64,000 nt of DNA. Origin: an uncultured Candidatus Saccharibacteria bacterium (GTDB taxonomy: Bacteria > Patescibacteriota > Minisyncoccia > Phycocordibacterales > CALRHW01). Positions 37,294-64,000 of this stretch are shown here, piece by piece. Numbering within the stretch: position 1 is the first letter of the stretch; each line of letters starts with the position of its first letter. Location of the stretch: the NCBI GenBank assembly GCA_964390845.1, contig CAYMIL010000001.1, positions 102,326 through 166,325 on the forward strand, written 5' to 3'. The position numbers were made by a program, and so were the translations under genes. The notes beneath the pieces were generated by a model. That model made no database searches and was not told the origin of the DNA. It saw only the letters and a list, made by a program, of their open reading frames with translations.

Positions 37294-37327
37294 GGGCGCG
37301 CCGCACAGCGGCGCGCCCTTCTTTTTT
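37294..37327 (+). terminator. Rho-independent terminator
   Basis: GGGCGCGCCG-CACAG-CGGCGCGCCC perfect 10-bp GC stem followed by TTCTTTTTT. Confidence 0.7.
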
Positions 37328-37808: not shown

Positions 37809-37836
37809 TATTTAGAGCGATAGTTCACAAGTATTG

Positions 37837-38373: not shown

Positions 38374-40044
38374 TTACCCTGCAATTGGCAACTCAACATA
38401 GAACTGTGAGCCCCTGCCCTCACCTTCAGACTCTGCCCAGACACGGCCGTTGTGCGCCTTCACAATCTCTTTAGCAACATAGAGCCCCAGACCTGTTCCA
38501 CGAATATTGACCTTGTTTGCGTTTTCTGCGCGCTTAAACTTTGCAAAGAGTTTCGGAATAATCTCAGCAGACATACCGATACCTGTGTCTTTGACCGCAA
38601 ACAACACCACTCCTTTTGCTGGGTCTTTTGTGAGTGACACGGTAATCGAACCCTGTGGTGTGTACTTTACTGAGTTATCAATAAGATTTGCGACGACCTG
38701 CTTAAACTTATCGAGGTCAGCATTGACCACAAACTTCTGTCGCTCATCAAGCTGGATAGTGAGGTCGAGGCCGGCTTTGTCTATGTTTGGCTTCAGCTCA
38801 CCCGCAACCTCTCTCACCATATCTTTAAGATCGAGTGGACGCATATCGTATTTCATAGTTCCAAGCTCGATACGAGAAATATTAAGGTAGTCGTTGACGA
38901 CGTTTGTGAGCGTGTTTGTTGATTCGTAAATTTTCTGTACAGCATCACGCACATCCGGTGCAACATCTCCGTAATCCCCTTCAAGAATGAGTGACGAATA
39001 CCCCTTCATTGCAGTAAGCGGGCTTCGGAGTTGATGTGTCGCAAACGAAACAAATTCTGTCTTTTGGACATCAAGTTCTTTGAGGCGGGTGTTGGCGTGC
39101 TCTAAGCTGGTATTTGTTTTCTTTAAGTTTTCGGCCAAAATCTCGATTTCTTCACGTGATTTTATTTCTCTTTTTACACTTCTTATAAGTTGATATCCTA
39201 ATATCGAAAACAGAGCGAGTGTTACAAAAACAACATATCTTACATTTTGTATATTTCTAACAAATAGAATCGAAAACGTGAGCAACCACAGTGTCACTAC
39301 AATGGCTTGTGTACTAATCAACTTTATGTTAAATGCCTTAAATTTAACGACTAAATACACAAGAAATGCAATAAATAGAGGCATCCCTAAAAGTCCGACC
39401 TGAGCAATAACCCAATTTTCAGTCAAACTTCCAATAATATTACCTGAGGAAAAAGCAAAAAGAAAAACAATTATACCCGCCAAAAATAGACCTATCTCTT
39501 TTCTGCGCCTTATTTCAATTGCCATCTGACCAAAACCAACAAATAAAACCGAGAAGCTAAGAAGAATTTCTAGTCCATACGTATAAAAAATAACGAGATT
39601 GCTCTCAACGGCATCACAATAAGAAACATCAATACCAGGAAGAAATCCTTTAGTTGGCAATATTATCGCTACAGGTAAAAGCACAGCCATCAAAAATAGT
39701 TTTTTACTGAAAGGTAAATCTTTTCTTTTTATAAACACATAAGCAAAGTAGAAAGAAACACCGTAAATTAGTACTTCGCATAATATCTGGAGACTCCAAT
39801 AAAACAAAACCAAATCTGGTCTATTGCTTGCCCATAAAAGCACATCGATTACGGCCCAGCTTATAAAAAGAAAAACAACATTTAAAAAAAATCTAATTGA
39901 GAGATCCTGACGTTTATGAAAAAGCAAGGCTGCAAATACTAAAGCGGCAAGAATTGCGACAAAATGAGAGTAGTAAAGTAAGGTTGGAACATTACTTGAG
40001 AAAATAAAATGTTTCGCTGGCTCCCAAGGGCAAAAAATTTCCAT
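38374..40044 (-). CDS. Sensor histidine kinase with polytopic (about 7 TM) N-terminal sensor domain
   Basis: HisKA H-box (HQLRSPLTAMKGY), HATPase_c (N, G1, G2 boxes: GTGLGLYVAKEIV). Start set at the Met just downstream of the neighbouring gene's stop. Confidence 0.8.
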   Translation of the reverse strand: MEIFCPWEPAKHFIFSSNVPTLLYYSHFVAILAALVFAALLFHKRQDLSIRFFLNVVFLFISWAVIDVLLWASNRPDLVLFYWSLQILCEVLIYGVSFYFAYVFIKRKDLPFSKKLFLMAVLLPVAIILPTKGFLPGIDVSYCDAVESNLVIFYTYGLEILLSFSVLFVGFGQMAIEIRRRKEIGLFLAGIIVFLFAFSSGNIIGSLTENWVIAQVGLLGMPLFIAFLVYLVVKFKAFNIKLISTQAIVVTLWLLTFSILFVRNIQNVRYVVFVTLALFSILGYQLIRSVKREIKSREEIEILAENLKKTNTSLEHANTRLKELDVQKTEFVSFATHQLRSPLTAMKGYSSLILEGDYGDVAPDVRDAVQKIYESTNTLTNVVNDYLNISRIELGTMKYDMRPLDLKDMVREVAGELKPNIDKAGLDLTIQLDERQKFVVNADLDKFKQVVANLIDNSVKYTPQGSITVSLTKDPAKGVVLFAVKDTGIGMSAEIIPKLFAKFKRAENANKVNIRGTGLGLYVAKEIVKAHNGRVWAESEGEGRGSQFYVELPIAG

Positions 40045-40054
40045 AAAGTACGTA

Positions 40055-40894
40055 TTATAGCTTTTTTGCAAAAACCTTAAAGTTTCTGAACCCGTTACCA
40101 AATTGATAATCAACAATAAGTTGAACCCTGTCTTTTTTAGTTACCTCTATATCTGAATCGAGCGGAACACAAACTGGACCATTTAGTGCAAGTGTGTCAC
40201 CGATAGAGGTTTTTTTATTTAACCAAGTCGAACTTTGAAGATAAATACTGTTTAAGGTACCTGTTTTTTTAATTTTAATAATATGTTCCGAATGGTGTTC
40301 CATTAAATTACTTTTATTCAGCAGAACGGAATCGAGAAGTGTTGGGTCGGAAAGACGTTTCATTTTTGGTTTTGGTAAAAATTTCCAAAAATGTTTAACC
40401 ATCCGCATATTAAATCCAAAATCATAAAAATTTGTCTCCGTAAGCAAAACGGATGTGTCTTCTTTGCAAGGAATAAATACTGTTTTCTCGTCTACATACC
40501 CCTTTTCAAAAAGCCTGTTTAGTGCCCAGATTTGGAACTCATCCACCATTCCTGTAGTCAACATTTCCATCGTAACAACATCAATAGTTGTACCCTCCGG
40601 AAGACGAATATTACGTGCATCGCCAAGCATAACTTGCACCACGTCACCATATCCATTTCTCTGAATATTCTCGTGGGCGAGTTTTGCGACAAATGGGTCA
40701 AACTCTATAGAAAAAACTTTTTTTGCTCCGGCGCGAGCCGCAAAGAGAGCAAGAATTCCGGAACCCGTTCCAACGTCAAGAACAACGCTGTCCGGCCCCA
40801 CAGCCGCATTAATAGCTTGTTCAAATTTCCTTGTTCTTTCCTCATCAAGGAGACACTGTGTAACTAAATCAATAGAGCTAAATGTTTCGTCCAT
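40055..40894 (-). CDS. Class I SAM-dependent methyltransferase with PRMT-like motifs
   Basis: Motif I VVLDVGTGSGILALFAARAGA, post-I IEFDP, motif II IDVVTMEML. Reminiscent of protein arginine methyltransferases. Confidence 0.6.
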   Translation of the reverse strand: MDETFSSIDLVTQCLLDEERTRKFEQAINAAVGPDSVVLDVGTGSGILALFAARAGAKKVFSIEFDPFVAKLAHENIQRNGYGDVVQVMLGDARNIRLPEGTTIDVVTMEMLTTGMVDEFQIWALNRLFEKGYVDEKTVFIPCKEDTSVLLTETNFYDFGFNMRMVKHFWKFLPKPKMKRLSDPTLLDSVLLNKSNLMEHHSEHIIKIKKTGTLNSIYLQSSTWLNKKTSIGDTLALNGPVCVPLDSDIEVTKKDRVQLIVDYQFGNGFRNFKVFAKKL

Positions 40895-42709: not shown

Positions 42710-45700
42710 TTAATCTATTTTCTTAAACCTGCCGGGTGTCAATACTTCATCCTTAATAACTGTTATTATTCTCTTTGTTGCGTTATCGAGAGGAACTAAA
42801 ACTTGGTCTTTATATCTTACCACCTGTTGATATTTCGAATCAAAATATTTCTCCCCGGTCCTGTAGGCATCCATTACCTTCTCCGCGGTAATACCGAACT
42901 TCTCCCGAATTATAATATTGTCTATTCCATGACTTGAGATCTCGATACCTTCTTTGATAAAAGCATCTTTGATAACATTGTATTTTTGCCTGAAATTGAG
43001 ATTGCTGCTACCAAATCCACTTTTCACAAAGTTCGTTGCAGACTCAACACCACCAATAGCAATCTTCTCGGCTCCTCCAGCAATCTTTACTCCAGTCTTC
43101 TTCTCAGCCCCTCCTGGCGTAAGCATCGATCCAACAAACAATGCACCCTCAAGAGATCTGGACCCTCCTTCTTCACCAACATCTGGAGAATATGCGACTT
43201 CTGGCCATAGAAACATTGTAGCAATTGCCGTCCAGAAGTTTCCATCTCGGTCCACATTCACCATTGGGTTGTTTCTCGCATAAGAATAGCTATTGAGTGA
43301 TTGTGGGTCCGCAAGATACATTGGAAGTTCAAGTCCTGTTTTATCTTTCAAATCTTTTGCGTTTCCGACCGCCAAGAATGCAGGATCCACAGATATAAAC
43401 CGCCCAGTGTTTCCCGCGTAGTACCTCGCTCCCATATAATTAAGCCCTGTCTCAGCATCATACTCATGCCCGGTAAACTTTCGCTGTTCGGAGTAGCCGA
43501 GACCGAAATCTAGGCGAGTCGCGCCATACGGATAATAGTCAACTGTCTCTGCTGAAGTACCAGCTGAGTTTGTGATCACGCTTGAACCACCAAGATGATC
43601 GTTGTGAATATACAGAATATCTGGCGTCGATGTACCGTGTGTTTCAATTGTTGCCACGACCTGGTCACCCAAAAACACGTGCGCGGTTGTCGTGGTGCCT
43701 CCAGAACCAGACAAGCCCGAATCATCCGACACCTCAATGTTCCAATATTTATTTGGATACACTGTCGTGTTCCGTCCAAACGCATAGACAACGCGGTCGC
43801 CAGCATGGTCGTAAGAATACGTTGTTGCCGCAGGACCCACAGTGAGCATCGTCGGTCTGTTTTTATAATCCCAGGTACTTGTTGCAATGCCATTGCCCGT
43901 CAGCATATTGCCATTGCGGTCGTATGTCAGTGTTCCCGTAACCGGAGTCGACACTACGGCGTGCGGGTTTGCATACTGACTTTTTACCGACGTGCTTGGA
44001 TACGTATATGTGCCGATATCAGACTTGCTGAGAATGTTGCCGATAGCGTCATAGGTATACGTCTCACGGTACGGCAACGTCGCTGCTGCCGTTGTCGATG
44101 CAGAAAGAAGGCGGTAGAGATTGTCGTAGACATATTCAACCGTACGCTGAATTGTTGTTGTGGCGTTCTCTTTAAGTAAGGTTATGTTTCCAACCTTGTC
44201 ATACGTATACTCAAGATCTTGATACTTCGTACCGCTTGCACCCGACTGCTTTGTTACTTTTTTAGTGAGACGATATAGCTTGTTTGCGTCGTATGTATTC
44301 GTTGCCTCAATTCCGTTTGCGTTTTTCTGGAAACTAACCTTGCCTTCTGGAGAGTAATCAAGGTCATCCACCAACACAGAGAACGACGTCGCACTCGGAA
44401 GCTTCTGTAACACACGCTCTACAAAACCACCGTTGTTGTATTCATACTGTATCTGCAAACCATCTGGATAGGTGATAAGTGTGGGGTTTCCCTGTCGATT
44501 AAATGCATACGCTGTGGTATATGTCGCACCAGATATTGTCCGACCTTCTTGCACCACACGCCCAGCGGTGTCATATGCATATGTGGTTGTTGCTCCCTGT
44601 GTCACAGCCTGGCACAATCTCGTCTTTCCAAATGCGCATGTATCATACGCGTACACAACATCGACACCCGGTGTGCCTGTGAAGTTTTCAGTAAGTGGCC
44701 GATTGATGGCGTCGTAAGTATATTGAATTGTCTGACCCTTTCCATCGACTACCTGCGTTATATTTCCAGCATTATCATAGGAATATGACCATGTAGAAAA
44801 TGAGGTGTCTGCTGGATCATGAAGATCCTGTGCGGTTAGACGGCGACCCAAACCGTCGTAGGTAAAGCTACGAATATTTCCGAGTGCATCGGTAATTTTT
44901 GTGAGTAAATTTAGACCATTATATTCGTAGTATGTGGAATACGTACTCGTGCCATTGTATTCATCAACCCGAATGAGGTTGCCACGAGCATCCTTGTACA
45001 ACTTCCTCTGATTGTTTAGCGGATCTTTTACAAGGACATCCCATCCGTCATATGTTGTTGTGGTGGTACCGAGATAATTTTTTGCAGAAGTCACACGTCC
45101 CAGTGCATCGTATGAAAACTCTTGTCGTAAATTATTATCAACTGGCGTAGAATCATAATCAGAACCATCAGTAACAAAAAATGGCAACGAGTGCTGTTTC
45201 TTCAAACCACGAGAATCGTACCCGATCTTTGTAACCGTGAAAGCGTCTTGGTCACCCTCTGACTGAACACGTTCTTGTATGACACGACCAAAGCCATCGA
45301 AATACGTGTATGTTGGCACAGACATTCCAGCATCAAGATATTGTGTTTTTACTACGCCTGTAGGAAATTGATTATCAAGATATGTATACGAACTTTTTTC
45401 CTCAAGTGTCGATACCAACGATGGACTTGAAACCTTTTCAGACAAGACCCTATCAAGGCCATCATAAACAAACTCTGTTACCTTTCCATTTTCATCAACA
45501 ATTTTTTTAGGTTTTCCAGATGAGTAATCATACTGAAAATCTTTGATGTGACCCACGGAATTGGTCGTCGTTGATGGATACAAACCATATACATCGTAAG
45601 CATATGTTGTGGTTGCTCCAAGGGAATTGATTTCACCAACAATCAGGCCTTTCTCATCGTAAATTGATTGCTCATTTACAAAACCCGATCCACTTTTCCA

Positions 45701-48367
45701 ATTTTCAATCTTTGTCTTATTACCAAACGACACAGAGCCTAATGGGAGACTGTCGTAATAAATCTTACTTTCAGACAATAATCCACTACCAACATCAACA
45801 AGCGACACACGCGAAGGCAGGACGATTCGACCATCTGAACTTGTTGCGTAAAAATATTTTTTAGTAGTTTTATCTGTACCAACATCGGAAAAACCCCCAA
45901 CACCATCACCGATAACTTTTCCCCACTGATCTTCTCTACTAATCGACAAAGCGAGATCGTCATACTCATATGTGGTTGCACGATCAACCGGAGTACCGCC
46001 TTCACCATATTGCCTTTCCAAAAAGGTTGTCAGTTTCAGAAATGACGATGTTGCACTTATTGAGGAATTATGACTATCCCACCTATTTTGAATACTGGAT
46101 AATATATTCCCCTCATTATCATATGTTTCAATAAGATACGGCCTTCCAATCTTTGAATAATTATCCTGAAACTCTCCAGTTGTGAATGACGTTTGATTTC
46201 CTTGGTGAAAATATTTTTTTGTAATATTCCCGATCGGATCTGTCTCAATGATTAATCCGAATCCAGAGACTTTCTTATCATGTGAATCTGCATAATATAG
46301 ATCACCCTCTGTATACACATAAGTAGTAGTTCCAACGCCTCCCACGCCGTCATGAACGGCAATCGAAGACACGGTTATTAGATTTTCTGGAAGGTTCGGA
46401 TTCAACACGCCGCCTACTCCAGTATATTGAGCTGACCCCTTATACGTTACCAATACAGAACCTTTTTGGGGCAATAAATAGTAATGGAGCTTATCCGAAA
46501 CATCTCCGATATGGCGATAAACTTTATTAATTACACCCTCACTCGTGCGTCTACTAATAAGTAAATCCATTAGACCATCCCCGTCTATATCAGCAAAACG
46601 AACGCCCTGATCGGTGTTATTGAAATTAAAAAATTCTGGAATATCCCACGAGGTATCGAGTGTCCAGCCGTGACCGGTGTTTAGATATACTTTTTTAACT
46701 TCGATATATGGATCACCGCCCCTCCAAGCACGAATCAAATCAACAAGTCCATCACTATTTATATCTTCAAATCTTACCCCACCGTCCGTTTGAGATTTGA
46801 AAATTTCTGGAATATCCCACGAGGTATCGAGTGTCCAGCCGTGACCAGTGTTTAGATATACTTTTTTAACCTCGATATATGGATCACCTCCACGCCAACT
46901 TTTTACAATGTCTGGCAACATATCGCCATTTACATCAATCAAATATACACCCCTATCATGCGTATCCTCAACAAAAAACTCTGGCAGACTCCACGAAGTA
47001 TCGAGTGCCCAACCGCTACCAGTATTTAAATACACAACCCTTACATCTTCAGGTGGCTCAGGGTTTCCTAACATTCCGCGCACAATATCTGGCAAACCAT
47101 CCCCATTCACATCAGCAATTCTAGTGCCAGAATCCTTATTGTAATTTATAATAAACTCTTCTGGAACGCTTACAGCAGGATCCTCAACCCAATCACCTTG
47201 AGAGCTTGTATAAGTAAAACTTCTTGCTGGCAACACCACCTCCTGGCTTTCAGATTCAAAACCTTTTTCTACTACCGATCCCAATAAATCTCTCGACTTG
47301 TTATTTCCCTTACTATACGTGAAATCGTAAGCTCTACTTAGAGTAGAACCAACATAAATATTAATTTTGTTAATTCTAAAAGATGTCGTGACTGGAAAAG
47401 AAGTTTTATATGAAATTGTAGATGTTGCCAAATTCTCTTTAAGAAATTCAACTTTGTACAGACCGCTATCTGTTCCATACCCCGTGTATTTTATATATTT
47501 CGGATAAATTTGCCCCCCATCTTTCTCATATTCATATTTTATAAAGTTGCCATTTGCATCTTGAATCGTGTCGACCATCCATCGAAACACATGACTTGTG
47601 GTCGTGGCATCGCCCTGTCGACTTTGTGAGGTTAACCCAAAAGAATACCTTGTACCATTTCTGTCATATACAGTCCATATATTATTAGTTAATTCATATT
47701 TTCCAAAACTACCATCATCTACACGCGGCAAAAATGTGCTCGTAGTAGCGCCCAACGATGCCACAGAAAGCTCTCCCGACATTGATGAGAAAAAATTGTT
47801 TTCTGTATAGATCTTTTCCACACCAGAACGATTAATACGCTCTATGTACGGAACATCAATAGACCAACCGAATCCTACATAACTACCAAGAGTTCCAGAA
47901 TTACTACCGTAAGAAATACGCAATTGTGGATTCATTCCATTTCTACCTGGCGGTATAACAATTGGAATTTCAGTCTGGAAAGATCCATCAATATCAGCTA
48001 CGTTAAATATTTTTATATTTTCTGGAGTTTTAATATATCCCGTTTCGTCCTCAGACGACTGCATAACTAAGCCCCCATCTTCACCACCCTCATCCCGCCC
48101 AGCGCTAGATGTTCCATCGACAGAAAAAATGGGCGTAACATCGCCCATTGCATCTCCACTATTAATTGTCGGTTTTTCTATAGACGAGTCCTTCTTTTCG
48201 GCCCCCTCTCCAGCAGAATCGGATGACGTATCGCCCTCAGAAGAAGATTCTGAATCGCCATCCTGAGATACAGACACCTCAAAAGCGCTCACCATACCAG
48301 CGGGAACAACAAAAGAAATAATGAGGATACTCGTAAGAAAACGTAGTAAAAATGAAGGTTTTTTCAT
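42710..48367 (-). CDS. Secreted RHS/YD-repeat polymorphic toxin with FG-GAP/VCBS-like repeats and variable C-terminal toxin domain
   Basis: 1885 aa. Signal peptide. Four DxNxDGxxD repeats (ADVNGDGLPDIV, IDVNGDMLPDIV, EDINSDGLVDLI, ADIDGDGLMDLL). Dozens of YD repeats (YxYDxxGR). RHS core end (YDAETGLNYMGARYYAGNTGRFISVDP...YARNNPMVNVDRDGN), then an unrelated roughly 240-aa C-terminus. Confidence 0.85.
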   Translation of the reverse strand: MKKPSFLLRFLTSILIISFVVPAGMVSAFEVSVSQDGDSESSSEGDTSSDSAGEGAEKKDSSIEKPTINSGDAMGDVTPIFSVDGTSSAGRDEGGEDGGLVMQSSEDETGYIKTPENIKIFNVADIDGSFQTEIPIVIPPGRNGMNPQLRISYGSNSGTLGSYVGFGWSIDVPYIERINRSGVEKIYTENNFFSSMSGELSVASLGATTSTFLPRVDDGSFGKYELTNNIWTVYDRNGTRYSFGLTSQSRQGDATTTSHVFRWMVDTIQDANGNFIKYEYEKDGGQIYPKYIKYTGYGTDSGLYKVEFLKENLATSTISYKTSFPVTTSFRINKINIYVGSTLSRAYDFTYSKGNNKSRDLLGSVVEKGFESESQEVVLPARSFTYTSSQGDWVEDPAVSVPEEFIINYNKDSGTRIADVNGDGLPDIVRGMLGNPEPPEDVRVVYLNTGSGWALDTSWSLPEFFVEDTHDRGVYLIDVNGDMLPDIVKSWRGGDPYIEVKKVYLNTGHGWTLDTSWDIPEIFKSQTDGGVRFEDINSDGLVDLIRAWRGGDPYIEVKKVYLNTGHGWTLDTSWDIPEFFNFNNTDQGVRFADIDGDGLMDLLISRRTSEGVINKVYRHIGDVSDKLHYYLLPQKGSVLVTYKGSAQYTGVGGVLNPNLPENLITVSSIAVHDGVGGVGTTTYVYTEGDLYYADSHDKKVSGFGLIIETDPIGNITKKYFHQGNQTSFTTGEFQDNYSKIGRPYLIETYDNEGNILSSIQNRWDSHNSSISATSSFLKLTTFLERQYGEGGTPVDRATTYEYDDLALSISREDQWGKVIGDGVGGFSDVGTDKTTKKYFYATSSDGRIVLPSRVSLVDVGSGLLSESKIYYDSLPLGSVSFGNKTKIENWKSGSGFVNEQSIYDEKGLIVGEINSLGATTTYAYDVYGLYPSTTTNSVGHIKDFQYDYSSGKPKKIVDENGKVTEFVYDGLDRVLSEKVSSPSLVSTLEEKSSYTYLDNQFPTGVVKTQYLDAGMSVPTYTYFDGFGRVIQERVQSEGDQDAFTVTKIGYDSRGLKKQHSLPFFVTDGSDYDSTPVDNNLRQEFSYDALGRVTSAKNYLGTTTTTYDGWDVLVKDPLNNQRKLYKDARGNLIRVDEYNGTSTYSTYYEYNGLNLLTKITDALGNIRSFTYDGLGRRLTAQDLHDPADTSFSTWSYSYDNAGNITQVVDGKGQTIQYTYDAINRPLTENFTGTPGVDVVYAYDTCAFGKTRLCQAVTQGATTTYAYDTAGRVVQEGRTISGATYTTAYAFNRQGNPTLITYPDGLQIQYEYNNGGFVERVLQKLPSATSFSVLVDDLDYSPEGKVSFQKNANGIEATNTYDANKLYRLTKKVTKQSGASGTKYQDLEYTYDKVGNITLLKENATTTIQRTVEYVYDNLYRLLSASTTAAATLPYRETYTYDAIGNILSKSDIGTYTYPSTSVKSQYANPHAVVSTPVTGTLTYDRNGNMLTGNGIATSTWDYKNRPTMLTVGPAATTYSYDHAGDRVVYAFGRNTTVYPNKYWNIEVSDDSGLSGSGGTTTTAHVFLGDQVVATIETHGTSTPDILYIHNDHLGGSSVITNSAGTSAETVDYYPYGATRLDFGLGYSEQRKFTGHEYDAETGLNYMGARYYAGNTGRFISVDPAFLAVGNAKDLKDKTGLELPMYLADPQSLNSYSYARNNPMVNVDRDGNFWTAIATMFLWPEVAYSPDVGEEGGSRSLEGALFVGSMLTPGGAEKKTGVKIAGGAEKIAIGGVESATNFVKSGFGSSNLNFRQKYNVIKDAFIKEGIEISSHGIDNIIIREKFGITAEKVMDAYRTGEKYFDSKYQQVVRYKDQVLVPLDNATKRIITVIKDEVLTPGRFKKID

Positions 48368-48558
48368 AAAAATGGTCTAAAAAGCACTTTTTCTATTAAT
48401 TTGATACTACCATAAACTTTTATAGTTCAAGAATTTCTAAAGTTTTTCTAAAGTACTTATCCACAACATATATTGTCGAGATGGCACAAAACAAGGTATG
48501 CTGATATCTTCGTCGTTTTTTGACGAGGAGGTATCGCATCAGCGTGCCTAGGCCACAC

Positions 48559-49224
48559 ATGCGCATCCTCATCATCGAAAACGATACGACTACTCGCAAG
48601 TTTTTAGAGTCGAACCTCGAATCATGCTGTTTTGCCGTTGACAGTGTACCCGATGGTGCACGTGGATCATTTATGGCACGCACCAACGAATATGACCTCA
48701 TCTTGTGCGCATATATAGTCGCAGAAAAAACTGCACCCGATATGTGTCGAGAAATACGCAACGCGGAAAAACATACTCCTATAATTATCATTTCTGAACA
48801 CTCCGACATCGACGCTAAAATAGAATGCTTCGAGGCTGGTGCTGACGACTATATTGTAAAACCGTGCGTGTTTGATGAAGTTCTTGCGCGAATACGTGTT
48901 GTACTAAAACGACCACGCACAATCGCGTGCGCCGTGTTTGAAATACAAGATATTAGATTAGAAACGGGCACCCAGCGCCTACTCTACAAAAACAAAGAGG
49001 TATATCTTACAAGGAAAGAATACGCCCTCCTCGAATATCTGATGCGCCATCGCGGACGCCTCCTTACAAGAGGAATGATTCTCGAACATGTCTGGGACAT
49101 TGATGCAAACCCTTTTTCAAATACAGTCGAAACACACATTATGAATCTAAGAAAAAAGATTCGTGATATGGAAAAGAAGAGAATCGTAAGTGTGCCAGGT
49201 CGAGGATACATGTTGCGCGGATAA
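48559..49224 (+). CDS. OmpR-family response regulator, atypical receiver (phospho-acceptor Asp replaced)
   Basis: Receiver plus winged-helix (RGYMLRG) domains. Aligned with OmpR, the LDLMLP position reads LCAYIV (D to C) and the DD pair reads END. Confidence 0.75.
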   Translation: MRILIIENDTTTRKFLESNLESCCFAVDSVPDGARGSFMARTNEYDLILCAYIVAEKTAPDMCREIRNAEKHTPIIIISEHSDIDAKIECFEAGADDYIVKPCVFDEVLARIRVVLKRPRTIACAVFEIQDIRLETGTQRLLYKNKEVYLTRKEYALLEYLMRHRGRLLTRGMILEHVWDIDANPFSNTVETHIMNLRKKIRDMEKKRIVSVPGRGYMLRG

Positions 49225-55746: not shown

Positions 55747-55920
55747 TTATTTCTTCTTTACGTCAGTAGTTTTTGTCTCATCAACATCTTTGAACGCGCC
55801 GCGCATATGGCGAATCGCTTCAACAATGCTTTTTGAAAGTTCTGGAATCTTCTTTGATCCAAACAACAAAATCGCAAGAATCGCGATAATGATGAGCTCT
55901 CTAGTTCCTAATCCAAACAT
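55747..55920 (-). CDS. tatA: Twin-arginine translocase subunit TatA/E
   Basis: 58 aa from the internal Met. MFGLGTRELIIIAILAILLFGSKKIPELSKSI matches the TatA TM plus amphipathic helix. Confidence 0.75.
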   Translation of the reverse strand: MFGLGTRELIIIAILAILLFGSKKIPELSKSIVEAIRHMRGAFKDVDETKTTDVKKK

Positions 55921-56632
55921 GGTTGTGTGTGTTACGGTTAATAAATAGGGTCGCTTCATATAATACCACAAGAGGCAACGCCATAGCCACTAGCGACACA
56001 CCATCTGTTGGAGGTAGCAAGGACACAACAAGAAATAGTATGAAAACGGCTGTTTTTCTACTGCTACGCAAGGTTTCTATAGACAGCGCCCCAAGACGGA
56101 CGAGTGCTGTTACAATAACAGGAAACTCAAATACCACACCAAGAAGAGACGCCGTGAGAAACAGTTGAGAAAGAAAAGCGCTTACATCCCAAATATTTTG
56201 AATGCCTAACGTTCTGTTGATCTGCGCAAGTAGGCCGAATGAATAATAGAGAATAAAGAATCCGTACAAAAAACCAACTACAAAAAGAAGGATACTCACG
56301 GGCACAGATACAAGGACCATTCGACGTTCTCGCGCATTGAGTGCCGGCATCAAAAAAGAAAACATAAAATATGCCACGATGGGTAGCGTACAAAGCAACC
56401 CCAAGAAAAAACCAATATCCATCGCCAAATCTGCAAACTGAAATGGCGACGTGGTCGCAATAGTTACCCCATCAAGCCTAAAGAATTCAAAAAAATGATC
56501 GAGGATAAATCCTGAAGAGAAAAAACCAACAATAAACACAACAATAAACACCAACGCGCTGTGATACAGCTTTACTCGTAGATACTCAAGATATGGCAGA
56601 AATTTCTGTATATGTTCGCTGAGTGGCGACAT
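55901..56632 (-). CDS. tatC: Twin-arginine translocase subunit TatC
   Basis: 243 aa, 6 TM. N-terminus MSPLSEHIQKFLPYLEYLRVKL typical of TatC. Confidence 0.85.
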   Translation of the reverse strand: MSPLSEHIQKFLPYLEYLRVKLYHSALVFIVVFIVGFFSSGFILDHFFEFFRLDGVTIATTSPFQFADLAMDIGFFLGLLCTLPIVAYFMFSFLMPALNARERRMVLVSVPVSILLFVVGFLYGFFILYYSFGLLAQINRTLGIQNIWDVSAFLSQLFLTASLLGVVFEFPVIVTALVRLGALSIETLRSSRKTAVFILFLVVSLLPPTDGVSLVAMALPLVVLYEATLFINRNTHNHVWIRN

Positions 56633-56817
56633 GTCATTCAGACATTATGAATATATCACTACCAGACACAAGCGGCACTTCGAGCACTGGATACTGCGTA
56701 CTTGAAGACTCTGTCGCTATATCAAGCAACTCACCAGAATACGAAGCGTTTGGAAGCTCGACAAGAAAATCTTGGCCTTCGCCCGATTGAAAATTTACAT
56801 CTGTAAGTGCCATATGA

Positions 56818-57429
56818 TTACTTTAACACGTCACTCACTGTGTCGATAACTTTAGAAATCTCCTTTGCCTTTTCTGAAATCTCGTCTGCCTTAGTATTGA
56901 CCGCTTCAATGATAGAGGTTGCCTCCTCAACTGTTGTCACTGCTGGTGCATCCGAAACTACAGCAACAGGCTCTTTTGTCTTTGGTTTTTTAGGCTTTCG
57001 TGTTGGTTTTGTTGTTGTGGGCGTGGTTGTCGAAGTGGCTGTATCGGTCGCAGCCGTACCTACTCCAGCAACTTCCCCAACATCTGGAAGCCCCTCCTGT
57101 GCACGAATTTCAGCAAGTGATGTATCAGTAATTGTGCCACCATTCATTTGAGCGAGGAGTTCATTGCTCATACGCACAAATACCGCCGCCTCATGTTTTG
57201 ATTCTGGATCAACTTTGAGAATCTCCTCACCAAGCTCTTTCGGGTCATTAAACTTATAGATCATCGAGCCATACTTTACATATTGAGCCTGATACGAACC
57301 AAGCTCAATATGTGGACGAGCGACATCGTAAAACGCCACAAGAGCCGTATCTTCGTATTCACCACTTGGTGATGCGACACGAAGATTATTTTGTTCTGCT
57401 ATGAGAGAATCTTGTTCGATGTAAATCAT
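56818..57429 (-). CDS. Hypothetical protein with Thr/Pro/Lys-rich low-complexity linker
   Basis: 203 aa. Globular N-domain, TSTTTPTTTKPTRKPKKPKTKEP linker, helical C-terminus. Confidence 0.4.
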   Translation of the reverse strand: MIYIEQDSLIAEQNNLRVASPSGEYEDTALVAFYDVARPHIELGSYQAQYVKYGSMIYKFNDPKELGEEILKVDPESKHEAAVFVRMSNELLAQMNGGTITDTSLAEIRAQEGLPDVGEVAGVGTAATDTATSTTTPTTTKPTRKPKKPKTKEPVAVVSDAPAVTTVEEATSIIEAVNTKADEISEKAKEISKVIDTVSDVLK

Positions 57430-57430
57430 G

Positions 57431-60088
57431 TTAGTTCTGTGTTAGAAGTGCACGTACTTTTATATTGTCCGCAAGCACGGTCGGTGTGTATCGAATATAT
57501 GTTGTCTCATTCGCCTTGTCTGTTGTGTTGTATGAACCCCATGTCTGGCCGTCGTCGGTAGATTTCTCAAATGTTCCAGAAGCAGATGCTGTGGTTGTGT
57601 CATCAAGAAGCAAACCATCTGTTTCTGCATTATACAACCTGATACGCAGTGTAGGCACTGTGCCACCAAATGCCGTTGAGAATCTCCACGCAAAACGCTT
57701 GCTTGTTATTGAAGACTGCGCGACAGACGGCTGGTAATGACTGTCTGTTGTATCGTCTTCATATGTACAACAAATATTGAAAATTCTAGCCGGCAAACAC
57801 ATTGAACCAATTGTTCTAAACTCCACCGCAAACTGCACTTCTGTAGTGGCGGTTGCCGCAGACAAATCCCCTGTCTGGTCAACGAGTGTCCATGTGCCTG
57901 AATTATCGCTAATTCCATTCGTTCTGTAGTAGATTCGCGCAGGCTCTGTTGGGAATGTAAGACCCGCATTTCCTAGATATGGTGCGTCGTTGAAAAATAC
58001 ACGAGAGAGCTTTGTTGCATTTGACGTTGAGAGGGATGGCGTAACGAGGCGCTGACTTACACTTCCTGTCGCATATGACCAGTCGGCACCAAGGGGTACT
58101 GTATACATGACGTTGACCAATGCGGTGGTACCTGTACGACAAATGTATACCAATCCATCCTCCGACCACACAGAAAGCGCGGCTCCCTGCGCACTCGGGT
58201 GCGGAACCGAATCAGAATCAGCAGTAGACTGATCTTGCTGAGCAGTATCCACAAGAAACATGTGATCGAAAGGGCGAGAACCAGATGCGTCATACTGCGT
58301 GAGATACGCTCTGTGGTGCGCGGTTGTTGTTGCAGACGTTGTGGTGATAATGAGGCGGTCAATTTGGTCGGCAATTTCTACCGCAGTAATGGCACCAGTC
58401 GCAGAATATGTAGCCGTACCTCCCGCAGGAATTTCTGTCATCGAATCCGCAGCCCATGTTGAACTTCCAGAGGTTATACCAGTAAGAGGCGCTCGGTAGA
58501 TCCTCGAGGAGGTAGCAAAATACAAACACTTCACACCAGAACCTGGACCATGGCTGAGAGTACCGATTCGACCGTTATTTGTTTGTGTCGTGTTTCCCGT
58601 TACTGTCTGTGTCGCAGTTACAAGTGTAAATGCAGAGGATGATTTTCCTGCACCGATACCACCAAGTGTAGTGAGGTCTGCTCTGATATTGTATTTATAC
58701 ACCTGTGGAGTGGTCGCCGCTTGCACCTCAATAATGTAGACAAACTGCTGTGTCCAACTTGCTCTATCATCAATAGCCAAACCACCCGCGATACCGTTAC
58801 CTCCCACGATTACATACGAAGTACCAGCGCCAATAGTTCCCGCTGATGCAGAAAGTGTAATAGATGTAGTACTTCCAACAGCAGAGATGGTGTACCATGT
58901 CGTGATTGACGCAGGATTGGTACTACCAAAACCAATACGACAACCCAAATGAGTGGCGGCCGCCCACGAAGTACCCGCACCAGTAACACCTGTTCCCGAC
59001 ACCGTCACAGTACCTGTTGAATAAATAGCATCGAGATCAACGAGAGAGTACACAGCTTTCTGTTTATCTACCGTAGTTGCCGCGGCTATTGTTTGGCCTC
59101 CAGAAATAAAATCATCATAAGACAAGCCAGTCGCCATAGAAAGACCTGCCGCCGCAACCACCACTGCGGTTGTTGCTGTCAAAATACGTAAATCCTCAAT
59201 GACGTAGGCCGTACCAGAAGAAATGGAGAGGCTTGGTGTCGTACCTCCGGTACCGCTTGCTGTCACCGTTGATTGGATTGTAATAGAAGTGTCCGAACTA
59301 ACTGCAGAAATATAATACCAAGTATCAATCTGCGTAGGGTCTGTACTACCAAAACCAATACGGGAACCAATAGGGATACGACTCGTAGACCACGCTGTAC
59401 TTGTGCCTGTTACGGTTGCTCCAGATACAGCGATAGTACCATCAGTATACTTTTCATAGGATGCGCGCAAACCTCTGATTGTTTGGTTACCTCCGCCGGC
59501 AGGATAGGTCAATGTAACAAACCCACGCCATGAAAAGAGCGATGTCGTTCTGTCATAGAGAAACAGAGAAATACGACGAGTAGCCGCGGCTGTGGCGTTG
59601 TCTGCAAGGAACACCCAATCGAGCTGGAGCGTCTTGTCGATTACATACGATGTACCTGAGCCTATTGTACCCGCAGAGGATGCGAGCGTCAGAGATGTTC
59701 CGCTCGGAATTGCGGCAATTGTATACCACGTTGTAATTGCCGTGGGGTCCGTACTACCAAAACCAATGCGGGCACCAACGGGCACGCCATCACTAAACCA
59801 TGATGTGCCGGAGCCCGTAACGGCCGTTCCAGAAACAGCAACGGTACCTGTGGAGTATGTGCCGTTTTTGTCGGCCCATGACACAACGTGCGGATAGATA
59901 CCCGGAATAGATGTAGATGTTTCAACCGGGCGCGCCACACCAATTTTTGCTGGCCCCGCAAATTTATCCGTCGGGTTTACTCCAGTGTATTGAAGTATCA
60001 AATCACCAAGAGTTGTCTTGGTTGAATCGTACGACGTATACGGGGTCGTCGCACCAGTAAACACATGTTCAATCGCTCGTTTTGCCAT
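57431..60088 (-). CDS. Large Thr/Ser/Gly-rich repetitive surface or secreted protein
   Basis: 885 aa. Three copies of a roughly 75-aa module (Y[ST][DT]GT[VI][AT]VSG[TA][AG]VTG.GTSW...RIGFGST[DN]P..I[TD]TWY.I[SA]A...[TS]SIT...S.GT.G.GT.YVI). Four-nucleotide gap to the upstream ORF. Confidence 0.55.
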   Translation of the reverse strand: MAKRAIEHVFTGATTPYTSYDSTKTTLGDLILQYTGVNPTDKFAGPAKIGVARPVETSTSIPGIYPHVVSWADKNGTYSTGTVAVSGTAVTGSGTSWFSDGVPVGARIGFGSTDPTAITTWYTIAAIPSGTSLTLASSAGTIGSGTSYVIDKTLQLDWVFLADNATAAATRRISLFLYDRTTSLFSWRGFVTLTYPAGGGNQTIRGLRASYEKYTDGTIAVSGATVTGTSTAWSTSRIPIGSRIGFGSTDPTQIDTWYYISAVSSDTSITIQSTVTASGTGGTTPSLSISSGTAYVIEDLRILTATTAVVVAAAGLSMATGLSYDDFISGGQTIAAATTVDKQKAVYSLVDLDAIYSTGTVTVSGTGVTGAGTSWAAATHLGCRIGFGSTNPASITTWYTISAVGSTTSITLSASAGTIGAGTSYVIVGGNGIAGGLAIDDRASWTQQFVYIIEVQAATTPQVYKYNIRADLTTLGGIGAGKSSSAFTLVTATQTVTGNTTQTNNGRIGTLSHGPGSGVKCLYFATSSRIYRAPLTGITSGSSTWAADSMTEIPAGGTATYSATGAITAVEIADQIDRLIITTTSATTTAHHRAYLTQYDASGSRPFDHMFLVDTAQQDQSTADSDSVPHPSAQGAALSVWSEDGLVYICRTGTTALVNVMYTVPLGADWSYATGSVSQRLVTPSLSTSNATKLSRVFFNDAPYLGNAGLTFPTEPARIYYRTNGISDNSGTWTLVDQTGDLSAATATTEVQFAVEFRTIGSMCLPARIFNICCTYEDDTTDSHYQPSVAQSSITSKRFAWRFSTAFGGTVPTLRIRLYNAETDGLLLDDTTTASASGTFEKSTDDGQTWGSYNTTDKANETTYIRYTPTVLADNIKVRALLTQN

Positions 60089-60110
60089 ACTATTGTTAAT
60101 TATACATCAA

Positions 60111-60716
60111 TCACACTTCTTTATAATCCACATTTATCTGTACCGTGGTCGTTCCGTCGATAACGCAATACAGTGATTCATCAACACCACCCTCGATATA
60201 GTTGGGGTGATTGTTTGCGCCATACAAACCGCCCGTTTTGGGTGATAGATACTTTTCATGATCCGTTCCGCCAGCGGTAAAACGAAACGAAACAGATGTT
60301 GCGTTTGCGTTGAGAGAAAAACGCGAGCTGTAGACACGAATTTTTTTGCCCGACGCCGGCGTGTGCACAATTCCCGACGAACTCAGTGATGTTGTGAGCT
60401 TTTCTACACCCTGTCCGCTCACAATCGCCTGCACGCTTTCGTCGGTCGCAGGATTTATGCGGTCATTTGAAGAGTCTTTAAGGCCAACGACGCTCGATGT
60501 GGGCGCACTTCCCACGACGAGAGCGTCTGCTTTCTTTGGAAAAAGCGATGCGGCAAACAATCCGAGGCCGGCACCGCCAAGAACTTTCAAAAAGAGACGC
60601 TTGTTTGAATCATCTATGTGCTCAACGAGCTCAGCAACGGCCGACGTGTCGACAGGAACATCGTTGCGCGTTTTGCGCACCAGTTTAAAGGAGAGTTTGT
60701 TAGGCAAAAAAATCAT
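60111..60716 (-). CDS. Hypothetical secreted protein with Tat-like (KR) signal
   Basis: 201 aa. SNKRLFLKVLGGAGLGLFAASLF resembles the S/T-R-R-x-F-L-K Tat motif, with KR in place of RR. Confidence 0.4.
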   Translation of the reverse strand: MIFLPNKLSFKLVRKTRNDVPVDTSAVAELVEHIDDSNKRLFLKVLGGAGLGLFAASLFPKKADALVVGSAPTSSVVGLKDSSNDRINPATDESVQAIVSGQGVEKLTTSLSSSGIVHTPASGKKIRVYSSRFSLNANATSVSFRFTAGGTDHEKYLSPKTGGLYGANNHPNYIEGGVDESLYCVIDGTTTVQINVDYKEV

Positions 60717-60845
60717 ACAACTGTGTTTGTCATAATTTTAGCACACTCTGTAATGGAGTTGGTGTCAAAAAACAAAAAAGTGTGGAAAAGTCTTCCTTTA
60801 CGAAGCGCACTTTATCAAATATCATTATCTATAATATAGAACACA

Positions 60846-63359
60846 ATGAATAGTACACGCACACTCGCACGTTTAATTGTTTTTTCACTCCTCTCGCTGT
60901 CAGCACTTGTCGCATATGCGGACTATCAAATCGTATCTCCAGGCGACACTATTCGTCTTGGTGAGTTTGTATACGACGATGATTTCACACCCACCACAAC
61001 CCCATGTACCCTTACCATCTACGATCCATCTGGTAGCACGGAGGTAAATGCCGACTCAATGAGTGCCGACCTCAGCGGATGGCATTATTATGATTATGCC
61101 GTTGACTCAGGAGCAACAGAAGGTGTGTGGTCAGCGTTTATGTCTTGCGGAAGCGTGCCGACGGGAGATTTGGTAAAGGTAGATAAATCATTTAAGGTTG
61201 GCGCAACGACGGTAGCAAGCACCACAATCGCAAGTGCTGTCTGGAATAACGCATCTCGTACCCTCACATCCTTTGGCACACTCGTATCAGACACTGCCTC
61301 TGGTGTATGGGGCTCAGTAAGCAGGACACTTACTGGAGCAGGTCTCACATCGGGATCACTTGCTACTCTTTCAGATGTTCAGACAGCGACAAGCTCTCTC
61401 GCTTCTGCAATGACGACAAATACGGCGTCTATAAATTCAACCATCACCACCGCCTCAACATCTGTTGGCTCGCTCATCGCATCAGTACCGGCTAACGTCT
61501 GGTCATACTCTTCACGATCACTCACGACGTTTGGCACGCTTGCCGCAGATACCGCATCAAGCGTATGGGGTTCTGTGACGAGAACGCTCACGGGTGCAAA
61601 CCTCGACACTGGTTCCCTCGCAACATTGTCTGATGTGCAGTCTGCAAGCTCATCACTCGCGGCAGCGATTACCAACAACGGCACAACACTTAACACAGCG
61701 ATTACCAACGCTTCAACATCACTTGCAGCAACCATCACCACCGCCTCAACATCTGTTGGCTCGCTCATCGCATCAGTACCGGCTAACGTCTGGTCATACT
61801 CTTCACGATCACTCACGACGTTTGGCACGCTTGCCGCAGATACCGCATCAAGCGTATGGGGTTCTGTGACGAGAACGCTCACGGGTGCAAACCTCGACAC
61901 TGGTTCCCTCGCAACATTGTCTGATGTGCAGTCTGCAAGCTCATCACTCGCGGCAGCGATTACCGCAAGCACAGCAAGCATCACATCAGCAATCGCATCA
62001 CTCAACGACATTTCTGCTGATGATGTATGGCAATACGGTTCTCGAACACTTACAAGCGGTGGTGGAGGCGCAACAGCTGAAGAGGTCGCCGATGAAGTAT
62101 GGAATCGAGCATCAAACCAGCTTTCAACATCAGGAAGTATTGGAAAACTTCTCGCTGACAACATCGACGCGGCAATCTCAACTCGAGGCACAAGCAACAT
62201 AACTGCGGCGGATGTGTGGGCAGTCGGTACTCGAACACTTACAGACTACTCAACATCAAGCATTGCAAATGCAGCGGCACTTGCAGTGTGGGCAAACGGC
62301 GCTCGAACACTTACAGACTACGGCAACGATATCACTGCGGCAGATGTATGGAATACACTCACATCAACACTTACTTCAGTTGATTCAATCGGCAAACTCC
62401 TCACAGACAATATCGACGCAACAATCTCTTCTCGTGCATCACTTGCAACACAAGATGCTCAGTGGTTTGTCACAATGTCTGATTACTCATCTGTACAGGC
62501 AGGAGAAACATACCGAGCTCGCGTACAGGTACTCAACGAATCAAGCACACTTGAAAGCCCATTTGCAGCTCCACGTATAACACTCTACGACGCAGAGAGA
62601 AACACTGTCGTATCTTCTGTTGCGATGACATCAATCGGCACAGGTTTGTATGAATACACATATTCTGTTTCAAATTCAGCAGCGCAAGGTGTATGGGAAG
62701 CCGTCGTTTCAACACAAGTTGAAAGCGGAAAGTATGTTACAAACAATGACTACTGGATCGTTGCTGGCTCACCTGCTCAGGTTATCATCAACAGCGTAAC
62801 AGCAAACTCCCCTTCTGATATCAGCGCAAACGTCACAATTACCAACGAAGGTCTCACTGGATACGAATACCAGTATGAATGGTGCGTTGTTACAGACGCA
62901 AACAACCCGTGCGGTGGTGGCAATGACACATACCATGCAACAGGCGCTAAGTTTATTAACCCAGGCGAAGACTGGAATACCAACCTCACCGCGACAGTAT
63001 CTTCAGCTGGCTCATACTACTTCAAGCTCGTCGTATACTTCGGTACAGAGTCATCCGGCTCATCACGCTCATTTAGCGTAACTGGTGGTGGTAGCGGTGG
63101 AGGAAGCGGTGGTGGCGGAGGTGGAGGTGGGGGCGGTGGAGGTTCTTCAGCGGGAACAGCAGTTTCTGCATGCAAAGGAGCAGACTTCAACCATGACAAC
63201 TTCGTAAACTCAATCGACTTCTCTATCTTACTTGCGTTCTGGAAGACAAATTCACCATTTGCAAACAAGTGTGTTGATATCAACAAAGACACAAAGGTTG
63301 ATTCGATAGACTTCTCTATCCTGCTTTCTCAGTGGGGTACGCCAGGTAAAGCACTATAA
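60846..63359 (+). CDS. Secreted repetitive protein with C-terminal dockerin-like domain
   Basis: 837 aa. Signal peptide. About three 97-aa tandem repeats rich in RTLT and S/T. Gly-rich linker (GGGSGGGSGGGGGGGGGGGGSS). C-terminal duplicated Ca-binding-type segment DFNHDNFVNSIDFSILLAFW / DINKDTKVDSIDFSILLSQWG, as in dockerin type I. Confidence 0.65.
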   Translation: MNSTRTLARLIVFSLLSLSALVAYADYQIVSPGDTIRLGEFVYDDDFTPTTTPCTLTIYDPSGSTEVNADSMSADLSGWHYYDYAVDSGATEGVWSAFMSCGSVPTGDLVKVDKSFKVGATTVASTTIASAVWNNASRTLTSFGTLVSDTASGVWGSVSRTLTGAGLTSGSLATLSDVQTATSSLASAMTTNTASINSTITTASTSVGSLIASVPANVWSYSSRSLTTFGTLAADTASSVWGSVTRTLTGANLDTGSLATLSDVQSASSSLAAAITNNGTTLNTAITNASTSLAATITTASTSVGSLIASVPANVWSYSSRSLTTFGTLAADTASSVWGSVTRTLTGANLDTGSLATLSDVQSASSSLAAAITASTASITSAIASLNDISADDVWQYGSRTLTSGGGGATAEEVADEVWNRASNQLSTSGSIGKLLADNIDAAISTRGTSNITAADVWAVGTRTLTDYSTSSIANAAALAVWANGARTLTDYGNDITAADVWNTLTSTLTSVDSIGKLLTDNIDATISSRASLATQDAQWFVTMSDYSSVQAGETYRARVQVLNESSTLESPFAAPRITLYDAERNTVVSSVAMTSIGTGLYEYTYSVSNSAAQGVWEAVVSTQVESGKYVTNNDYWIVAGSPAQVIINSVTANSPSDISANVTITNEGLTGYEYQYEWCVVTDANNPCGGGNDTYHATGAKFINPGEDWNTNLTATVSSAGSYYFKLVVYFGTESSGSSRSFSVTGGGSGGGSGGGGGGGGGGGGSSAGTAVSACKGADFNHDNFVNSIDFSILLAFWKTNSPFANKCVDINKDTKVDSIDFSILLSQWGTPGKAL
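61446..61963 (+). repeat. Intragenic tandem direct repeat: 227 bp identical copies (61446-61672 and 61737-61963), 291-bp period
   Basis: Read directly. Identical nucleotide stretches encode the repeated SLIASVPANVWSYSSRSLTTFGTLAADTASSVWGSVTRTLTGANLDTGSLATLSDVQSASSSLAAAIT module. Confidence 0.8.
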
Positions 63360-63365
63360 AACGCC

Positions 63366-63990
63366 ATGAAAAAATACACACCATTTCTAACACTCACCCT
63401 ACTCGCACTCGCCTTTCTTGCGCGCCCCCTCTCGGCACAGGCTCTTTCTTTGTCTGTTGAGCCAACTCGACCCCTTGTATCTGGAGACACGATCCTTCTC
63501 AACGTACTCGTTGATACTGATAGTCCAGAAATAAACGTCGTAGACGGAACCATAAGCTTTGCTGGGCCATACAACATCGTTTCTCTCAATACAAATAGTC
63601 CCCTTTTCACATTGTGGCCAAACAAGCCGTCACTTTCGGGCAACACAATCACCTTTACCGGTGGCGCTGTTTCCGGTGTGTCTGGAAAAGGTCTCAAGCT
63701 ATTCTCTATCGCACTCAAACCCACATCAACAGGCTCACTTACTATCACCACAAAAGACGCTAAAGCATTTCTTGCAGATGGAGCAGGCACCTCTCTCCCT
63801 ATCACAGGAACAACAAAAACATTTACTATTGCACCCCGCGGATCAGTTGCAAAAGACGATCTCGCAACAACAATTCTTGGTGATACAACACCACCACGCG
63901 ACTTCTCTATCATCATTGGCCAAGATCAAAATCTCTACGATGGAAAATATTTCGCATCTTTTTACACAACAGATGACGAATCTGGTATAA
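63366..63990 (+). CDS. Secreted cohesin-like domain protein (3' end truncated by the window)
   Basis: Manual translation of frame 3: MKKYTPFLTLTLLALAFLARPLSAQA signal peptide, then LSLSVEPTRPLVSGDTILLNVLVDT...INVVDGTISFAGPYNIVSLN...LWPNKPSLSGNTITFTGGAVSGVSGKGLKLFSIALKPTSTGSLTITTKDAKAFLADGAGTSLPITGTTKTFTI. This is the hydrophobic periodicity and landmark pattern of a cohesin beta-sandwich. Absent from the supplied ORF track because it has no stop within the window. Confidence 0.5.
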
Positions 63991-64000
63991 ACCGATACGA

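Follow-up and report, generated by a model that had tools for sequence, protein, structure and literature searches.

A 64-kb window on contig CAYMIL010000001.1 of an uncultured Candidatus Saccharibacteria bacterium (the whole stretch of DNA analysed here, in whose coordinates positions are given) ends in what is probably a non-cellulosomal cohesin-dockerin anchoring cassette. In it, the dockerin of a secreted protein, A, would bind the cohesin of one or both of two membrane proteins, B and C. Gene A (60846–63359, + strand) is an open reading frame (ORF) for a secreted fibre protein of 837 aa that ends in a dockerin and is matched by the Pfam families MG2 and Dockerin_1. Gene B (63366–64000 within the window, + strand) encodes a single-cohesin protein and runs past the window end, 211 of its 301 codons lying inside, and gene C lies entirely beyond it. 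The full lengths of B and C were read from a protein collection and from related contigs extending past the window. What is observed is which modules the proteins carry, their topology signals, an operon-like gene order and the strict pairing of dockerin and cohesin genes; from these we infer that the modules bind each other, how the fibre is oriented and that it is adhesive. That the modules comprise one dockerin and the cohesins named here is close to certain, and the fibre may, more tentatively, mediate attachment.

The dockerin of gene A

The C-terminus of A runs GGGSGGGSGGGGGGGGGGGGSS-AGTAVSA-CKGA-DFNHDNFVNSID-FSILLAFW-KTNSPFANKCV-DINKDTKVDSID-FSILLSQW-GTPGKAL and carries, at aa 776–837 (63171–63356, + strand), what its sequence identifies as a real type I dockerin. 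Its two tandem 22-residue segments, DFNHDNFVNSID-FSILLAFW and DINKDTKVDSID-FSILLSQW, are identical at 13 of 22 positions, and each places Asp or Asn at EF-hand positions 1, 3, 5, 9 and 12, ahead of an FSILL helix. The calcium loops span 63183–63218 and 63276–63311, and the helices FSILLAFW and FSILLSQW span 63219–63242 and 63312–63335, respectively (all + strand). Dockerin_1 (PF00404) matched aa 780–826 with 31.0 bits (E=2.9e-7), above its gathering cut-off of 22.9 bits, and the dockerin of an orthologue (locus L005) scored 23.4 bits against the same family. We then compared a profile of 28 orthologous dockerins (A3) with the PDB. Its matches included the Clostridium thermocellum CelS dockerin (1daq/2mte, E=2.8e-11) and comprised 1daq and 18 other dockerin chains, 17 of the dockerin-containing chains at E<0.01 being further to 1daq/2mte. 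These results bear out the first-pass annotation, a reading of the letters alone, which had described an 837-aa secreted protein ending in a duplicated dockerin segment behind a poly-Gly linker. The Gly-rich linker covers aa 747–775.

Both calcium loops are intact and invariant in 36 orthologues, and their Asp/Asn residues are invariant or nearly so among the 28 aligned. Cys776 (63171–63173) and Cys809 (63270–63272) bracket the first dockerin repeat; both are present in 22 orthologues, neither in 10, and the state is mixed in 2. Because the pair co-occurs across orthologues, its sequence pattern suggests a disulfide clasp that would stabilise the dockerin. The two dockerin helices are near-identical (SIDFSILL in both), which recalls the symmetry behind the dual binding of type I dockerins in cellulosomes and may point to such a mode here. 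A dockerin-profile search for other cargo returned almost only short contig-end fragments.

Gene B encodes a membrane-anchored cohesin

The stop codon of A (TAA, 63357–63359) is followed by a 6-nt spacer and the ATG of B at 63366; B shares its strand and reading frame with A. The ATG thus lies 7 nt past the A stop, in agreement with the 7 bp given at first pass. The full protein, recovered as P0001 (301 aa, 100% identical over the overlap), consists of a signal peptide, a ~135-aa beta domain, a ~80-aa beta domain, a hydrophobic helix and a basic tail. The signal peptide covers aa 1–26 and ends in PLSAQA (63366–63443, + strand), where the structural model has a helix at residues 5–18 and a low-confidence stretch at 20–24. 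The cohesin module covers aa 27–160 (63444–63845, + strand) and contains the conserved motifs LWPNKPS (63612–63632), ITFTGG (63648–63665) and ADGAGT (63774–63791). A second domain, like immunoglobulin (Ig) or fibronectin type III (FN3) domains, covers aa ~175–255 (63888–64000 and past the window end, + strand), as judged from the model strands at 182–255 and a Foldseek match to 2w1n. The P0001 sequence closes, beyond the window and also on the + strand, with a C-terminal hydrophobic helix (aa 265–293) and an 8-aa basic tail.

Weighing against the identification of B as a cohesin, no Pfam family matched the B fragment or full P0001 at E<=10, Cohesin (PF00963) included, so the search of B itself with that family failed to return the cohesin proposed at first pass. 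The cohesin identity therefore rests on fold and family profile. An AlphaFold2 model of B built with 12 homologues (mean predicted local distance difference test, pLDDT, 86.5) places nine strands in aa 27–156, forming the nine-stranded flattened beta-sandwich (jelly-roll) of a cohesin. The 11 best Foldseek matches of this model in the PDB are all cohesins. The top match, 2w1n (E=4.7e-11), is a cohesin+FN3 double module with the same two-domain layout as B, and the nearest folds are the non-cellulosomal cohesins of Clostridium perfringens and Archaeoglobus fulgidus. At the sequence level, one of 12 close B homologues matches Pfam Cohesin (E=3.9e-5). A 26-sequence profile of the B cohesin domain (A2) retrieved 76 proteins, many with precomputed PF00963 matches (E=2e-43 to 1e-35) and three carrying the NCBI name 'cohesin domain-containing protein'; its four best sequence matches in the PDB are likewise cohesins (E 0.002–0.008). 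By predicted fold and by profile, then, B carries a divergent but genuine cohesin, and this part of the first-pass annotation holds.

The residues invariant in the cohesin family (N57, L83-W84-P85, P88-S89, I95, F97 and G99-G100) are located on predicted strands 3, 5 and 6. Judged from strand order in the model, these strands correspond to the 8-3-6-5 sheet, which binds dockerins in characterised cohesins, and may form the binding face.

The second domain of B has a distribution of its own. Its unit, marked by an SGI-x-RYE motif (P0001 aa 173–257; 63882–64000 and beyond in the window), is repeated 7–31 times in giant proteins of 890–4269 aa found in a library of 1.84 billion proteins, and these sequences suggest that very large proteins commonly use it as a module.

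Gene C encodes a second, taller cohesin protein

Gene C (P0089, 571 aa; 2424–4139 in locus L001) follows B directly, overlapping it by 25 nt, and its N-terminal cohesin (aa 25–150) matches the hidden Markov model (HMM) of the B domain with E=1.5e-27. After the signal peptide and cohesin come a Pro-rich linker, several Ig-like domains with weak DUF7743 and Big_13 matches, one transmembrane helix and a helical cytoplasmic tail. With C, the unit comprises a dockerin protein and, after it, two cohesin proteins that are anchored in the membrane and differ in height. These two also differ at their ends: the cytoplasmic tail of C is 72–86 residues long and conserved, whereas that of B is almost nil. 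Over the last ~76 codons in L001 and in 28 other loci the tail follows the pattern ...E..vH..f..LK.D....LE.....R.LT.EE..I...l...E.yl.k.I..IE, for which Pfam, NCBIfam and PDB sequence searches returned no family match. The PDB sequence search with C alone was empty. In NCBIfam, C gave one negligible T9SS_sortase match, and the Ig-like domains of B and C gave weak, sub-threshold 'OmpL47-type' matches.

B and C each contain a single cohesin and, in essentially every genome, a single C-terminal hydrophobic helix. The first-pass annotation had raised the prospect of further cohesin repeats or S-layer homology (SLH) anchors in B; neither is there, and a membrane helix takes the place of the anchor. 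No SLH or LPXTG signature occurs in B or C, whose ends consist of a hydrophobic helix and a basic or helical cytoplasmic tail.

Conservation of the cassette

We evaluated conservation in 35 species-level Patescibacteria genomes (one genome per species, scanned with the B family), and searched all ORFs of their loci for dockerins with an HMM built from three dockerins. All 35 B-family loci come from metagenome-assembled genomes of Patescibacteria, the candidate phyla radiation (CPR), labelled Paceibacteria, Parcubacteria, Nomurabacteria, Jorgensenbacteria, Harrisonbacteria or 'Saccharibacteria'. In every one of the 35 loci, the ORF that directly precedes B on its strand has a dockerin at its C-terminus. 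Each locus has exactly one dockerin, and no second was found in the 64-kb window or less than 6 kb from any locus. Since a dockerin-ending ORF precedes B in 35 of 35 independent genomes, the adjacency of A and B is far beyond chance. A and B are separated by a few nucleotides or overlap, and B is only 26–47% identical across these genomes.

Gene C is present in 31 of the 35 loci and absent from four; the junction of B and C is a gap of up to 7 nt or an overlap, usually of 1–4 nt. A third cohesin gene occurs in three of the 35 loci and in one further metagenome locus. In three genomes B and C are fused into proteins of 789–818 aa with two cohesins (L023 5956–8325, L037 1085–3541, L038 5986–8367), where sequencing errors are possible. 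The transmembrane helix of B is kept in these fusions, as is, at least in L037, the signal-like segment of C. Retention of these hydrophobic segments implies an outside-inside-outside topology with both cohesins facing outward.

Two more metagenome loci, entered from the dockerin side, have the same gene order. On a 240-kb metagenome contig (L042 2570–7076), the cassette is split into short ORFs (ORFs of 224–319 aa, then a 90-aa dockerin ORF, then ORFs of 195 and 73 aa), a fragmentation that may stem from frameshifts in A and B or from errors in their assembly.

The module identities can be set against chance resemblance, that is, low-complexity Asp/Asn repeats combined with a generic beta-sandwich. 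Pfam Cohesin's silence on B speaks for this explanation. We consider it refuted by the dockerin E-values against Pfam and against solved dockerins (2.9e-7 and 2.8e-11), by the cohesin fold and the A2 matches, and by retention of the modules in 35 genomes.

An exhaustive profile search of 1.84 billion representative proteins returned 2395 proteins at E<=1e-30. The best 150 of these are mostly full-length B-type proteins of 274–321 aa, each a distinct 50%-identity cluster, and some of the top scores belong to giant proteins that repeat the second domain of B. With B-type proteins in well over a hundred 50%-identity clusters, the cassette is common in this lineage, not rare as the initial statement on reduced genomes would have it. 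NCBI has automatically annotated relatives as cohesin or dockerin domain proteins.

The fibre protein

Protein A begins with a Sec-type signal peptide, aa 1–25 (MNSTRTLARLIVFSLLSLSALVAYA, cleavage LVAYA/DY; 60846–60920, + strand), judged by eye from its basic N-region, hydrophobic core and A-x-A-like site. An MG2-like, Ig-type beta-sandwich follows at aa 22–97 (60909–61136, + strand) and is presumed to form the distal tip. A scored 53.1 bits against MG2 (PF01835; gathering cut-off 32.8 bits) in two stretches, of which aa 22–97 is the best, and this N-terminal domain is kept in 27 orthologues.

A repetitive stalk rich in Ser (17.5%), Thr (17%) and Ala (16%) takes up aa ~120–539 (61203–62462, + strand), as delimited by motif count and composition. 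It contains 11 [VI]W-x4-5-[RSN]-x-L-[TS] motifs, most often in the form VW-x4-RTLT, and Tandem Repeats Finder reported within it a perfect 291-bp tandem duplication (61438–61964, no strand assigned; 1.8 copies, 100% identical). Three other assemblies of the same genome break within A, and L001, an assembly of that genome too, starts one repeat unit downstream of the first copy. Because this start lies exactly one 291-bp unit on, there is uncertainty about the repeat copy number and hence about how long A is. The protein collection has no entry identical to the 837-aa sequence.

Between stalk and dockerin lie a second MG2-like beta-sandwich (aa 540–641; 62463–62768, + strand), drawn from the two Pfam MG2 stretches and from an MG2 match of the orthologous region in L005, and a third beta-rich domain (aa 642–746; 62769–63083, + strand), recognised by its conservation among orthologues. 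The flexible Gly-rich linker follows (63084–63170, + strand), and a poly-Gly run is found in most orthologues. The fetched loci contain 33 more orthologue ORFs that keep the block of aa 560–745 (E 2e-120 to 1e-11). Variation of the stalk gives the orthologues lengths of 281 to 1959 aa; what they share is the MG2-like domain at the N-terminus, the domains near the C-terminus and the dockerin.

A phage origin of A was considered and rejected: tblastn against 50,697 phage genomes gave no match, and neither did PHROGs. The PDB sequence matches of A (single-chain variable fragments and collagen chains) were spurious, aligning to the poly-Gly linker only, and NCBIfam had no match for A. A scan for sigma-70 promoters and terminators reported fewer sites than in shuffled sequence, that is, at or below background. 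Its weak TTTACG-17-TATCAT site at 60797–60825, 20 nt 5' of A, and its lack of a terminator between A and B are accordingly neutral as evidence.

Proposed assembly and its alternatives

A, B and C all have signal peptides, and the cohesins of B and C are N-terminal to the membrane helices, so dockerin and cohesins lie on the same, outer side of the membrane. The assembly we propose would work as follows. A would be a Sec-exported fibre built from an MG2-like Ig domain, a variable stalk and two beta domains, with a type I dockerin that binds calcium attached through the poly-Gly linker. Once their signal peptides are cleaved, B and C would be type I membrane proteins, each with a single transmembrane helix at the C-terminus and a cohesin at the N-terminus. 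The cohesin would stand outside the cell on a stem of Ig-like domains, one in B and several in C. Non-covalently and in a Ca2+-dependent manner, the A dockerin would plug into the cohesin of B, of C, or of both. This would fasten the C-terminal end of the fibre to the cytoplasmic membrane and leave the N-terminal MG2-like domain projecting outward, the likely purpose being contact with a surface or a host cell.

Several results weigh against this proposal. The sole complex model, a single-sequence chimera of cohesin (27–159), native Gly linker and dockerin predicted without an alignment, reached a pLDDT of 51.8 and a predicted template modelling score of 0.44, and in this alignment-free model the dockerin was left disordered (pLDDT 33–40), which makes it uninformative on the complex. 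Mirror-tree and partial Mantel analysis across 29 genomes detected no dockerin-cohesin co-evolution beyond shared ancestry. Dockerin distances correlated with those of A's C-terminal domains at r=0.83, of the B cohesin at 0.63 and of the C cohesin at 0.53, and once A's own C-terminal domains were controlled for, the partial Mantel r was ~0.12 (p ~0.1). There is one dockerin for two cohesin genes. The dockerin and cohesin counts cover the window and the fetched loci, and others may exist elsewhere in the genome. The stalk matched nothing in Pfam, PHROGs, NCBIfam, the PDB or phage genomes and has no recognisable fold, and the searches made gave no pointer to a ligand for the tip domain.

One way to read these points is that the modules are real and their cognate partners lie elsewhere, with B and C acting as general docking sites or A docking another cohesin, and with adjacency reflecting envelope co-regulation. 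That two or three cohesin genes stand against one dockerin at each locus, and that the mirror-tree gave no specific signal, fits such an arrangement, as does protein SEML1_0315 of the cultivated Saccharibacterium Southlakia epibionticum, a large Ig-domain-rich dockerin surface protein that is needed for growth on the host and whose dockerin its authors read as glycan-related (Wang et al. 2023, PMC10633639). The neighbours of this essential Saccharibacteria protein are an alpha/beta hydrolase and a tRNA, with no adjoining cohesin gene. A resembles SEML1_0315 in being Ig-domain-rich and carrying a dockerin, a comparison made by description only. We nevertheless judge partners elsewhere to be unlikely: adjacency holds in 35 of 35 loci with near-zero spacers although B is so divergent, no second dockerin was found in the window or within 6 kb of the loci, and the loci entered from the dockerin side again show the cassette.

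A slightly less probable alternative is that the cohesin folds of B and C do not bind dockerins and serve as ligand- or carbohydrate-binding modules or as structural sandwiches, the dockerin of A being a calcium-stabilised module with another target, such as a wall polymer. The divergence of B from Pfam Cohesin is in keeping with this, and many non-cellulosomal dockerins have no known partner. The sequence-profile continuity of B with PF00963 points the other way, and the one interaction known for both modules is the simplest explanation of its strict pairing with a canonical dockerin. Binding of the A dockerin by the cohesin of B, of C, or of both remains the reading we favour.

As cohesin and dockerin are the defining modules of cellulosomes, we also considered a minimal cellulosome for polysaccharide degradation. 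We searched with Pfam for enzyme families in 30 window proteins, a subset of the window ORFs, and in two relatives. No glycoside hydrolase, carbohydrate esterase, polysaccharide lyase or carbohydrate-binding module family was present among them, which excludes a cellulosome for this locus. The dockerin, moreover, sits on a non-enzymatic fibre, each cohesin protein has one cohesin (two only in the three B-C fusions), and SLH and sortase anchors are absent, so that the cellulosome is effectively refuted here. The first-pass annotation had suggested a surface assembly rather than polysaccharide degradation, and that suggestion agrees with the lack of glycoside hydrolases and carbohydrate-binding modules in the scanned proteins, the single dockerin and the membrane helices on the cohesin proteins.

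Genomic surroundings

The rest of the window is ordinary chromosome, with genes for aminoacyl-tRNA synthetases, DnaB, two penicillin-binding proteins, MreB, a Mur ligase, SAM synthetase and TypA/BipA, together with a two-component system, a pilin-like gene and an 1885-aa RHS/SpvB/FG-GAP protein. A divergent block on the − strand (55747–60716) adjoins A and consists of tatA (55747–55971), tatC (55901–56632), p203 (56818–57429), p885 (57431–60088) and p201 (60111–60716). Beside the cassette in the other fetched loci, p201 recurs in 15, p885 in 11, p203 in 8 and TatC in 6. In the p201 product, a conserved K/R-R-x-F-L-K motif is accompanied by a hydrophobic stretch and an A-x-A site, a combination that looks like a twin-arginine translocation (Tat) signal; the gene shares its block with tatA and tatC. 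The p885 product has no signal peptide. Three repeats in it match the phage tail-fibre family phrog_1591 (E=2e-18), and it is very strongly conserved, matching with E=0 between genomes.

The 1885-aa protein (42710–48367, − strand) combines SpvB, FG-GAP and eight RHS-repeat matches, an architecture that by sequence is like that of Tc toxins or polymorphic toxins, here in a small-genome bacterium. A histidine kinase (38374–40116) and a response regulator (48520–49224) flank it. At 37326–38334 (− strand), a protein with a prepilin-type N-terminal methylation motif (PF07963) stands beside a DUF7282 protein, and the two may be type IV pilus-related surface components.

Relation to known systems and significance

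Many bacteria and archaea are known to have cohesin-dockerin modules outside cellulosomes. In its working, the proposed cassette corresponds to the part of a cellulosome that fixes it to the cell envelope. In Ruminococcus flavefaciens, ScaE is sortase-linked to peptidoglycan and holds CttA, a non-catalytic adhesion protein, via a type III X-dockerin (XDoc). This pair is the most similar analogue of the cassette, as a single cell-fixed cohesin holding a dockerin-bearing adhesion protein. It differs in that ScaE is part of a cellulose-degrading cellulosome, whereas the present locus has a transmembrane helix, no enzymes, a type I-like dockerin and two paralogous anchors. Clostridium thermocellum OlpA and OlpC likewise anchor through a single type I cohesin, but with an SLH wall anchor and glycoside hydrolase cargo. 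The non-cellulosomal pairs of C. perfringens NagH, NagJ and NanJ join secreted enzymes, with neither membrane anchor nor fibre, and the archaeal cohesin of A. fulgidus (2xdh) is not part of an operon of dockerin fibre and membrane cohesins. Relative to cellulosome anchors in general, the cassette is set apart by its lack of enzymes and carbohydrate-binding modules, its plain transmembrane helix, its paired paralogous anchors, one of them tailed, and its length-variable fibre cargo. A full-text search of the published literature returned no description of a cohesin-dockerin cassette in CPR; the single related report is that on SEML1_0315.

Two consequences concern the module families. The Pfam cohesin model under-detects a large Patescibacteria subfamily, and the repertoire of cohesin-dockerin anchoring would widen from SLH and sortase attachment to a plain transmembrane helix. 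For the organisms, surface building and host attachment in CPR are poorly known beyond a few cultivated Saccharibacteria, in which type IV pili and essential envelope proteins, one with a dockerin, have been implicated. The locus offers a concrete, widely conserved candidate: a fibre with a plug, the dockerin, and two membrane cohesins as its sockets. It is an improbable but consequential extension that A, B and C make up a lineage-wide organelle for attachment to host or substrate in Paceibacteria-type CPR, in which the fibre would dock on both membrane cohesins, gain and loss of stalk repeats would tune its reach, and the conserved tail of C, the taller cohesin protein, would couple engagement to the cytoplasm. 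If this were true, cohesin-dockerin would serve a large share of bacterial diversity as a primary means of attachment and signalling between cells, and not as a component of cellulosomes.

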